DNA of 64,000 nucleotides from Escherichia phage AugustSocin. The notes beneath the pieces were generated by a model, which had not been told where the DNA came from, made no database searches, and worked only from the letters and a program-made list of their open reading frames with translations. The translations under genes and the position numbers were made by a program. Location of the stretch: sequence record MZ501052; one strand, 5' to 3'. This document shows positions 36,656 through 60,995 of this stretch, piece after piece (position 1 is the stretch's first letter; every line of letters starts with the position of its first letter).

Positions 36656-36687
36656 TTTCTAATCTCCGTAATTCTGTATCAGTAGTT

Positions 36688-36726
36688 GATAGTTGTATAG
36701 TACCACAGCATGCTTTGGTTGTAAAC
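36688..36726 (-). promoter_or_regulatory. early promoter (PeSL-like) upstream of motA
   Basis: Minus-sense GTTTAC, 17-nt spacer, GTACTATAC; 5' leader carries CAACTATCAACTACTG. Confidence 0.55.
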
Positions 36727-36751
36727 CGTTTTGTGAAAAAAAATTTTAAAA

Positions 36752-40318: not shown

Positions 40319-40337
40319 TTTCCGCTCCTCCGTAGTT

Positions 40338-40376
40338 GATAGTTGTATAGTACCACGGTCCTTGTGGTATGTAAAC
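40338..40376 (-). promoter_or_regulatory. early promoter with embedded hairpin (PeSL-like)
   Basis: Minus-sense GTTTAC, spacer containing inverted repeat TACCAC-ggtcctt-GTGGTA, then GTACTATAC -10; shared flanks with copies at 19.4, 36.7 and 48.5 kb. Confidence 0.55.
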
Positions 40377-40392
40377 CGTTTTGTGAAAATTT

Positions 40393-57471: not shown

Positions 57472-57500
57472 AATGAAAAAAAGGACTCCCTAGGGAGTCC
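57472..57500 (-). terminator. intrinsic terminator downstream of soc
   Basis: Minus-sense AGGACUCCC-UAGG-GAGUCCU hairpin followed by UUUUUUU. Confidence 0.7.
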
Positions 57501-57510
57501 TTGAATTATT

Positions 57511-57680
57511 AACCACCTATTTCTGTAGGCGTAAACATTGCAGCATTCTTAGTTTTCCAAGTTGCTGCATCGGAAACTACATCAGAATAAGCTGCTACCA
57601 CCTATTTCTGTAGGCGTAAACATTGCAGCATTCTTAGTTTTCCAAGTTGCTGCATCGGAAACTACATCAGAATAAGCTGC
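57511..57680. repeat. perfect tandem direct duplication, 2 x 85 bp, spanning the soc 3' end
   Basis: 57511-57595 and 57596-57680 are identical (ACCACCTATTTCTGTAGGCGTAAACATTGCAGC...AGAATAAGCTGCT). Confidence 0.8.
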
Positions 57681-57830
57681 TTTTTCTGACGGAAAGATTT
57701 GATAATGAGAATCTGCAATACGGTGTTCATTTGAATATACATCAAATGCTACAGAAACTTCCATACCTTTAACTTCTTTGCCTTCACCTGCTGGATGAGT
57801 AAAGGTCTTGATGTTAACGAAACCACCCAT
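57582..57830 (-). CDS. soc: small outer capsid protein Soc, C-terminus altered by the tandem duplication
   Basis: 82-aa ORF MGGFVNIKTF...FPSEKAAYSDVV...; a single repeat copy would end ...TEIGG (78 aa), current ORF ends ...TEIGGSSLF. Confidence 0.8.
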   Translation of the reverse strand: MGGFVNIKTFTHPAGEGKEVKGMEVSVAFDVYSNEHRIADSHYQIFPSEKAAYSDVVSDAATWKTKNAAMFTPTEIGGSSLF

Positions 57831-57870: not shown

Positions 57871-58011
57871 CTTACAATTTAGCGGCTTTCCAGAGTTGTT
57901 CAATAATCTCTTGGTCTATTTCTTTAGTTATTTCATTACGTAATAAAGCAGTAAGGGCTTTCGCCCTTTTCTTATTCAACTTTTTGAGTTGACGTTTATT
58001 TAAACGAGACA

Positions 58012-58530
58012 TTAATAACCTCGGTCCTGACGAGCAAAGTTCTCGGCATTTTTCAGATAATAAAGTTTAAAGATTTCTTCTGCTGTAAGACCAAGACCTT
58101 GGAACATGTTCAGAACGAAATGGAGAATATCAATCATTTCAAACTTAATTTCCAGTTGGTCTTGTGGAGACAAATCAGTAATCAGAGTTTCACGACGTTC
58201 ACCATGCTGCGACTTCCAAGGTTTCCATACAGCAGATGCGTCTTTTTCACCATTACTCATACCACCAAGAGAAGTTAGAAGTTCACGGAATTCATCGTCA
58301 ATATAATCTTTCTGATTACGCAACCAATCAACAACTTCACCGGCAGTAGCCAAATCATCAGGATGACGATTATATTCAGGTTTATCTTTAGCTAAACGAA
58401 TCTGCAGAGATTTCTGCATGTCAAGCATTACCTGCAGCGGGTCTTTTTCATCACCGAGAATATCCCAATATTCATTTTGAGCTTTATCAACACCTTCGAT
58501 CAAATGAGCACATTCATTAAAGTGAGCCAT
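58012..58530 (-). CDS. 56: dCTP pyrophosphatase gp56 (MazG-like)
   Basis: ~172 aa from MAHFNECAHLIEGVDKAQNEYWDILGDEKDP...; track ORF starts 31 codons upstream at a hydrophobic Met. Confidence 0.9.
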   Translation of the reverse strand: MAHFNECAHLIEGVDKAQNEYWDILGDEKDPLQVMLDMQKSLQIRLAKDKPEYNRHPDDLATAGEVVDWLRNQKDYIDDEFRELLTSLGGMSNGEKDASAVWKPWKSQHGERRETLITDLSPQDQLEIKFEMIDILHFVLNMFQGLGLTAEEIFKLYYLKNAENFARQDRGY

Positions 58531-58601
58531 TATTTTTCCTTTCAATTCATGGGTTAGTAGATTAATTATACAATAAATATATAAAGCAATAAGGAGGACA
58601 T

Positions 58602-58802
58602 ATGGTACAAAAATTAATGGCACTTGTTAATGCCATCAAAGGTAATAAAAAGCGTATAGCTTTTACTATTTCTGCTATGGTAGGAATTTTACTCTGGAAC
58701 TTTATTTTATCACCTGTTGCAATTGCACATGGTATTAATATTCCAGTAGTTACTCTTGATACGTTCGTAGATTTAGCATTTGCTTTAGTTGGGTTAATTT
58801 AA
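58602..58802 (+). CDS. small membrane protein encoded on the opposite strand between genes 56 and 61
   Basis: 66-aa ORF with AAGGAGG 4 nt before ATG; two hydrophobic segments (FTISAMVGILLWNFILSPVAIA, VDLAFALVGLI); 3' end overlaps gene 61 stop. Confidence 0.55.
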   Translation: MVQKLMALVNAIKGNKKRIAFTISAMVGILLWNFILSPVAIAHGINIPVVTLDTFVDLAFALVGLI

Positions 58803-59995: not shown

Positions 59996-60352
59996 TTAAC
60001 CTCTATTCATAAAAGCATTAAAAATTTGGTCATCAATAGATGGCACAGTAATATTTTCTGCATCATTTAGCAAATCATTAATTTCATCAGATAGCATAAC
60101 ACATGTGCCTTTATTTCCTGTAATTGTTACTGCACAATTACGAACGTTTTCTTTATCAAATTTTAGGTTAATATTTTCGTAGTGAAAATCCTTTAATGCC
60201 GAATATATCTTTAAAATGAAATTGTCTTTTACTACAATAAACCCAACCTCACTATTAAAACGTGGTTCATGGAAACTGTAATAAACCTTTTCATCTATAA
60301 AATCGTATGAAATTTTTTCCATTTTTAAATATGAAAATTCAGAACTATACAT
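59996..60352 (-). CDS. hypothetical protein (61.1 position), paralogue of C-terminal part of next ORF
   Basis: 118-aa ORF ending SIDDQIFNAFMNRG, shared with ORF 60354..60995. Confidence 0.55.
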   Translation of the reverse strand: MYSSEFSYLKMEKISYDFIDEKVYYSFHEPRFNSEVGFIVVKDNFILKIYSALKDFHYENINLKFDKENVRNCAVTITGNKGTCVMLSDEINDLLNDAENITVPSIDDQIFNAFMNRG

Positions 60353-60353
60353 A

Positions 60354-60995
60354 TTAACCTTTATTCATAAAAGCATTAAAAATTTGATCGTCAATAGAAA
60401 CATTTACTTTAGACTGTTTTTCTGATGGTAATTCATATCCACATATTACAATTTTGTGATCAATATCAAAATACACAGAAGCAATATGATTAATGATGTT
60501 TTCAGTAAAGTCTAAATCAACATCAATATCTTTTTGACCACAGCCCAAAGGATAAATAATGCGAGTAATTCGATTATCTTTAACAAATATTCCACCGACA
60601 TACTCTGTGCTGCGTTTAAAGTTTACACGTTTCCTAAATGAAAAATATTCAGGTTCTTTATGAGCCCGACTCATAGGACACAATGAGTAGCTAGAATAAG
60701 AGATGTCAAATCCTACACCTTCAATATGAGCCAACGCGTCATGATTAAACCAATTATAATCATATGCCAAATCCATTATATTGTAATATGTGAAAGGCAC
60801 CGGATTAACATCATGTGTTGTACCTTTAAAATCTGCCCAGGCAACGATTTCGTTATCTTTAACAATTACAAAAATTGTGTCAATAAGATATCCACGGTTA
60901 TTTTCATCAGGCGTTATATTATAACATTGTGCATCAGGAAATTTACCGTATTTAAACGGTGGATTTTTGTGCATATAATAAATCATATTATTCAC
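60354..60995 (-). CDS. hypothetical protein (61.2 position)
   Basis: 213-aa ORF; C-terminal ~80 aa (IFVKDNRITRIIY...SIDDQIFNAFMNKG) paralogous to ORF 59996..60352. Confidence 0.55.
   Translation of the reverse strand: MNNMIYYMHKNPPFKYGKFPDAQCYNITPDENNRGYLIDTIFVIVKDNEIVAWADFKGTTHDVNPVPFTYYNIMDLAYDYNWFNHDALAHIEGVGFDISYSSYSLCPMSRAHKEPEYFSFRKRVNFKRSTEYVGGIFVKDNRITRIIYPLGCGQKDIDVDLDFTENIINHIASVYFDIDHKIVICGYELPSEKQSKVNVSIDDQIFNAFMNKG

Follow-up and report, generated by a model that had tools for sequence, protein, structure and literature searches.

An exact 85-bp tandem duplication at the 3' end of soc in the genome record of Escherichia phage AugustSocin: a probable contig end overlap turned internal or a possible recent near-neutral mutation

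The soc gene of Escherichia phage AugustSocin (MZ501052) ends in an 85-bp tandem duplication, which we analyzed within a 64,000-nt stretch of the genome (hereafter the window). The duplication is a private, zero-divergence and functionally near-silent feature of an ordinary soc gene, whose product it extends by four residues. We lean towards regarding it as an untrimmed assembler end overlap that was turned internal and is not in the phage itself. A real, very recent duplication event in the phage is the less probable explanation, and replication slippage and laboratory change are far less probable than either.

One array was identified by Tandem Repeats Finder at 57512-57681, with a period of 85, 2.0 copies, 100% matches, 0 indels and a score of 340. 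Copy 1 (57512..57596) is the gene-distal one and copy 2 (57597..57681) the gene-proximal one, and a register scan gave 0 mismatches solely at this placement (57512-57596 / 57597-57681). The original prediction had rightly described two identical adjacent copies of 85 bp, but the coordinates it gave for them (57511-57595 / 57596-57680) lie one base off and contain 1 mismatch (57511 A vs 57596 T). The period-85 identity ends sharply on both sides, with 57511 A facing 57596 T and 57682 T facing 57597 A. The flanks read ...GAATTATTA to the left of 57512 and TTTTCTGACGG to the right of 57681, and the flanking microhomology at the boundaries is 0 nt. The novel joint (57596..57597), at which ...GAATAAGCTGCT meets ACCACCTATTTC..., is absent from every public collection searched. 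The duplicated block is the final 85 nt of the soc coding sequence, stop codon excluded, and comprises 28 soc codons and one base, not the last 27 or so codons as first described. No other sizeable tandem repeat was found in the 64-kb window, and 61 of its 63 repeated 25-mers are due to the duplication; an exact 85-mer repeat cannot arise by chance. The boundary 57511/57512 falls at the exact end of the coding sequence, a precision that neither the artefact explanation nor the real-event explanation predicts.

The assignment of the gene to soc, made beforehand from the sequence, holds. The encoded protein matches the Pfam Soc family (PF16855) at 68 bits, where the cut-off is 27 (E=1e-18), its residues 1-78 align with residues 1-78 of the crystallised RB69 Soc (3IG9, 78 aa; E=1.1e-41), and T4 Soc (5VF3) is matched at E=1.9e-16. 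Residues 1-78 are intact and show 100% identity to the Soc of JLBYU22. The position of the gene is conserved as well: in wV7, JLBYU22 and 10 further contigs it is flanked by mrh.2 and by gene 56 (dCTPase), with the same strand orientation. The window Soc resembles the RB69-type Soc (3IG9/3IGE; PF16855), a small outer capsid 'clamp' protein, in end-to-end alignment over residues 1-78, in gene position (mrh.2-gene 56) and in having a late-promoter-like motif and a terminator, and differs from it in length, being 82 aa instead of 77-79 aa owing to the residues SSLF. Among 46 Soc homologues, nearly all full-length ones have 77-79 aa and two have 80-82 aa; the 82 aa encoded here lie beyond the 77-80 aa taken as the length of Soc, and 78 aa are obtained when one repeat copy is removed. 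Judged from its sequence, the 82-aa protein is still Soc, merely with an added tail.

The soc ORF as it stands occupies 57582..57830 on the minus strand and encodes 82 aa, namely the 78 residues of RB69-type Soc followed by SSLF. As had been predicted, it runs through copy 2 and stops four codons into copy 1, giving the end ...TEIGGSSLF. Copy 2 holds the third base of soc codon 50 and codons 51-78 in the native frame; since 85 = 3 x 28 + 1, the frame after G78 is shifted by one base when it reaches the distal copy, and the minus-strand reading past the joint continues out of frame through copy 1 for four codons (AGC AGC TTA TTC, SSLF) to a TGA at 57584-57582. The statement that the duplication rewrites the C-terminus of Soc goes too far, because all 78 native residues, 100% identical to those of JLBYU22, and the native ...TEIGG end are retained and only a 4-residue extension is gained. 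The native 3' end is orphaned at 57506..57595 (minus strand), where codons 51-78 in their native frame and the original TAA TAA stops are now untranslated and add approximately 70 nt to the soc 3' UTR ahead of an intact terminator. This intrinsic terminator hairpin (57481..57502, minus strand) is a perfect 22-nt palindrome followed by a T-run, with a DNA hairpin energy of -8.4 kcal/mol, and 9 nt separate the foot of the palindrome from the duplication's left boundary. The T-run (a plus-strand A-run at 57474-57480) measures 7 nt, compared with 6 nt in wV7, a difference in homopolymer length at an intergenic site. On the 5' side, a T4 late-promoter-like TATAAATA (57869-57862) and an AAGGAG ribosome-binding site upstream of the soc ATG (57843-57838), both on the minus strand and both assigned by consensus match only, are unaffected by the duplication. 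That the joint creates a structured element or signal of its own was ruled out, as shuffled sequences fold just as well as the joint region (z 0.13) and the 30-aa orphan ORF has no Pfam match.

The duplication is, as far as sequence comparison reaches, private to the AugustSocin genome. A 1001-nt query matched 728 phage records, the best of which aligned over approximately 915 nt in two pieces, corresponding to one copy. With an 80-nt probe centred on the joint, 108 phage records were matched, 47 of them at 99% identity or higher, and all 30 matches listed consisted of two pieces spanning exactly 85 nt, again one copy. Six public collections were searched with joint probes of 35, 24 and 50 nt. 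The 50-nt probe, which cannot seed on single-copy DNA, found 0 matches in 50,697 phage records (INPHARED), 0 in 5,426 E. coli complete genomes and 0 in 72,556 PLSDB plasmids, and the exact joint patterns were absent from IMG/VR, GTDB genomes and JGI metagenomes. No record of the 82-aa Soc product was found among 153 billion gene positions. The alignment with wV7 shows a clean 85-nt gap between flawless flanks, and in ten further contigs the alignment breaks at 57596/57597 in every case. Mrh.1 is common to more than 23 contigs, none of which is closer than about 97% and all of which are single-copy for the duplication unit; a private 40-mer of gene 56 was absent from three collections. The suggested comparison with soc of related T4-like phages sets a single copy in the relatives examined, and 77-79 aa in nearly all full-length Soc homologues, against the 82 aa of AugustSocin. 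No literature on a soc duplication in Tequatroviruses was found.

Another soc product ending in ...SSLF was recovered from a contig of 163,502 bp in an NCBI TPA assembly labelled E. coli (P0046). Its 54 aa end in ...RKSSLF and are identical to the window Soc for 35 residues and frameshifted thereafter. A second instance of the duplication was ruled out in this case, since the soc there is frameshifted by 1 nt and arrives in the same alternative frame at the same TGA. The contig appears to be a T4-like phage genome inside an E. coli-labelled assembly, with an indel in soc.

The window represents a mosaic Tequatrovirus with about 95-96% identity to its nearest deposited relatives. All 36 JLBYU22 genes with a counterpart in the 45-64 kb region are matched full-length, gap-free and in one frame, and general assembly noise was ruled out as a cause on the strength of these intact neighbours. 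As the remaining region is clean, the duplication is a lone structural oddity and not part of a general noise. Mosaicism is visible next to the gene: the interval between soc and gene 56 contains a single 46-aa ORF (57872-58012, minus strand) as in wV7, while JLBYU22 and several other relatives have two ORFs (57 and 66 aa) there, so that a hotspot of mosaic replacement adjoins soc. Within soc, the differences from wV7 cluster in about 30 nt (57723-57752), the 3' 85 nt and the 5' third being identical, a pattern that suggests patchwise recombination inside the gene. The mechanically called ORF of gene 56 (58012-58623, minus strand) has 203 aa and a GTG start; relatives annotate 172 aa (58012-58530), and the exact 172-aa gene 56 product has no database record. 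Dispersed direct repeats of small size occur elsewhere in the window, namely one with about 30 nt of common 16-mers (36682-36739 / 40332-40389, offset 3650 nt) and an exact 25-mer (60004-60028 / 60362-60386, offset 358 nt) in paralogous AdfA-like genes downstream of gene 61.

An origin of the repeat in the assembly is the explanation towards which we lean. T4-like genomes are circularly permuted, and for this reason assemblers return contigs with overlapping ends: an assembler that closes the circle would deliver a linear contig with identical first and last k bases. If such a contig were rotated to a new start, or read circularly across the origin, without removal of one copy, the overlap would become internal and appear as an exact two-copy tandem repeat wherever it happened to lie, in this case over the last 85 nt of soc. 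Gene prediction would then run soc across the false joint and report the 4-residue SSLF tail, and the 85-bp repeat would mark the former contig ends. Exact copies, 2.0 in number and without a one-base extension, are the signature of an end overlap and are unlike a slippage product. The repeat is exact, two-copy, private and free of microhomology, and leftover overlaps are frequent in deposited relatives.

The frequency of such overlaps was determined in 14 GenBank records of related Tequatroviruses that start elsewhere than at rIIA, by comparing the 400 nt at the beginning of each record with the 400 nt at its end. Untrimmed exact terminal overlaps were present in 3 of the 14, namely EO1 (OQ223305.1, 127 bp), HEMP5 (OR424388.1, 127 bp, flagged circular) and BECP11 (MW286157.1, 99 bp), and since these overlaps were kept, the three genomes are too long by the size of the overlap. 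The option of an assembly artefact named in the original prediction thereby gains weight. The overlaps resemble the window repeat in being exact, two-copy, around 100 nt, odd in length, private and of the same genus, and circularising or rotating the record turns them into a perfect tandem repeat; HEMP5 read as a circle contains a tandem repeat of exactly the kind seen in the window. They differ from it in that their copies lie at the record ends and measure 127, 127 and 99 bp, whereas the window copies are adjacent, internal and 85 bp long. De Bruijn assemblers are known to use odd values of k. The length of 85 is odd, like the lengths in the relatives, and within the range of up to 127 for the final k of an assembler, but it is not the length found in any of the relatives and is, to our knowledge, not a SPAdes default. 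Published guides recommend inspecting contigs for duplicated regions and describe terminal repeats that land mid-sequence (PMC8785237), and small end overlaps of SPAdes contigs have been removed by hand (PMC9583785). In the deposited record of EC128 (ON210139.1), the start lies within a stretch labelled 'similar to rIIA' and a 68-aa CDS labelled 'rIIA lysis inhibitor' closes the record; rIIA is apparently divided between its two ends.

Several features count against an end overlap. The internal position would require the extra step of contig rotation or of a wrap-around reading of a circular record, and 85 matches none of the overlap lengths of the relatives (127, 127, 99). The placement looks non-random, while a contig break should be indifferent to hairpins and to the end of a coding sequence; an end overlap gives no reason for a placement at hairpins, because the other contig end reads through each of them. 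The site is also a harmless one, as expected of a real mutation filtered by selection. On balance, an artefact is favoured by the base rate of leftover overlaps, by the odd length and by the lack of microhomology, and a real event by the placement.

Such an event would be a very recent, homology-independent tandem duplication in the phage, which we consider possible but doubtful. In this process, two breaks, one beside the soc terminator palindrome and the other inside a quasi-palindrome 85 nt upstream, would arise on sister copies in the replicating concatemer and be joined end to end, with structure-specific cleavage and ligation or a topoisomerase-mediated exchange as candidate activities. 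The product would keep Soc 1-78, add SSLF and carry a 3' UTR about 70 nt longer, and being near-neutral it could survive a plaque bottleneck. The joint is blunt and without homology (0 nt), as this process would leave it, and both boundaries lie at hairpin-capable sequences. The right boundary (57681/57682) falls inside the quasi-palindrome TCAGAATAAGC-T-GCTTTTTCTGA (57667..57689), which has 10/11 pairs, an energy of -4.5 kcal/mol and a z of -3.2. When all 85-bp intervals in a single-copy reconstruction of the window were examined, 0.04%, 0.12% and 0.4% had both ends at most 10 nt from an inverted repeat of at least 10, 9 and 8 pairs, respectively; this test was chosen post hoc, after the data had been seen, and its result counts less in favour of the duplication for that reason. 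That the two hairpin-forming sequences directed the breaks that were joined is a tentative proposal, a shade more doubtful than the real event as such.

Other observations fit a real duplication without bearing on hairpins. The left boundary exactly separates the last sense codon of soc from its stop codon, and the whole of Soc is preserved as a result; by our estimate, a duplication would do no harm at only about 15-20% of randomly chosen positions in a genome this compact. The base-level quality is high across the surrounding 19 kb, and the copies have not diverged at all, in keeping with a very young event. Soc is a dispensable protein and tolerant of additions at its C-terminus (PMC3012670). 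A Soc with a comparable tail exists in nature, in Edwardsiella phage PEi20 (P0030, 82 aa), where 4 extra C-terminal residues form the end ...VSGGGGG. This is a diverged homologue (72% identity) with a Gly-run tail that does not stem from an internal duplication, and it indicates that short C-terminal tails occur in the Soc family. Weighing on the other side, the duplication was sighted independently in none of the collections searched, nor was a same-lineage contig for comparison found in them. Microhomology-free joints are a minority among spontaneous duplications. The active homologous recombination of T4 should moreover remove an exact direct repeat of 85 bp, and with this expected loss a real duplication could only be a transient variant. 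The classic tandem duplications of T4, in the rII region and in the His-box of gene 37, and microhomology-mediated tandem duplications share with the window repeat the head-to-tail arrangement of a contiguous segment and the expected reversal by recombination; they arise, however, between short or partial homologies, are maintained by selection and are usually in frame or kilobases long, whereas the window repeat has 0 nt of homology at its joint, is out of frame and brings no evident benefit.

Replication slippage or microhomology-mediated template switching is very improbable as the source, although textbooks give it as the most frequent origin of small tandem duplications and it would account for identical copies. 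For slippage, the first bases of the unit would have to recur as a short direct repeat just behind it, and 0 nt of such homology were found; the nascent end ...GGTGGT has no pairing partner at ...CAGAAAA. With microhomology absent at both boundaries, slippage is disfavoured, and in the earlier choice between a recent slippage event and an assembly artefact, the pairing of a recent event with an artefact was right and the slippage was not.

A deliberate or laboratory change, either an engineering scar at the Soc C-terminus or an edit of the sequence file, deserves as little credence as slippage: insertions for T4 capsid display usually go to the Soc C-terminus, fusions being made at the N- or C-terminus (PMC3012670), and the block is the exact last 85 nt of soc up to the stop, a coincidence estimated at about 0.3% for random breakpoints, but the genome is a wild-type-like mosaic Tequatrovirus with about 96% identity to the nearest records and not a T4 laboratory strain, and the 'insert' is self-derived, out of frame and without cargo or cloning sequence, which no engineering rationale would yield. 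The SSLF tail resembles engineered C-terminal Soc fusions in that extra residues directly follow the last native residue, and differs from them in that those carry designed cargo and the tail consists of 4 residues of out-of-frame self sequence.

Whatever its origin, the duplication should have minimal consequences, because Soc is dispensable and tolerant of C-terminal fusions. Soc is dispensable (PMC3012670) and binds after capsid assembly is completed (PMC3012670; PMC9958956). Fusions at either terminus are tolerated, among them 43 aa added at the C-terminus and antigens as large as about 30 kDa (PMC3012670; PMC9958956), with no significant change in Kd or Bmax/copy number (PMC3012670). The window Soc is predicted by homology to bind between gp23 capsomers and to stabilise the capsid. 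The suggestion that a changed C-terminus could matter is unlikely to hold for a protein that accepts 43-aa additions and fusions of about 30 kDa without being essential (PMC3012670), and on this analysis it is very unlikely that a 4-residue SSLF tail matters.

If the duplication is the artefact that we lean towards, the deposited genome contains 85 bp too many and its soc annotation (82 aa, ...SSLF) is wrong. The main value of the finding lies in quality control, since a fair proportion of the related records would be caught by the same check (3/14, with overlaps of 99-127 bp). Should the duplication be real, the phage has acquired a near-neutral mutation that is young and probably transient, in a capsid-decoration gene that it can do without. 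It would then be a case of duplication in a T4-like phage with hairpins on both sides and no microhomology; if it was in addition guided by structure, it would offer a natural snapshot of an illegitimate duplication before recombination erased it. A real duplication would also make this Soc a naturally occurring variant whose surface-exposed C-terminus is lengthened, and would provide natural evidence that the C-terminus of Soc accepts extra residues, a tolerance already established by phage-display work.
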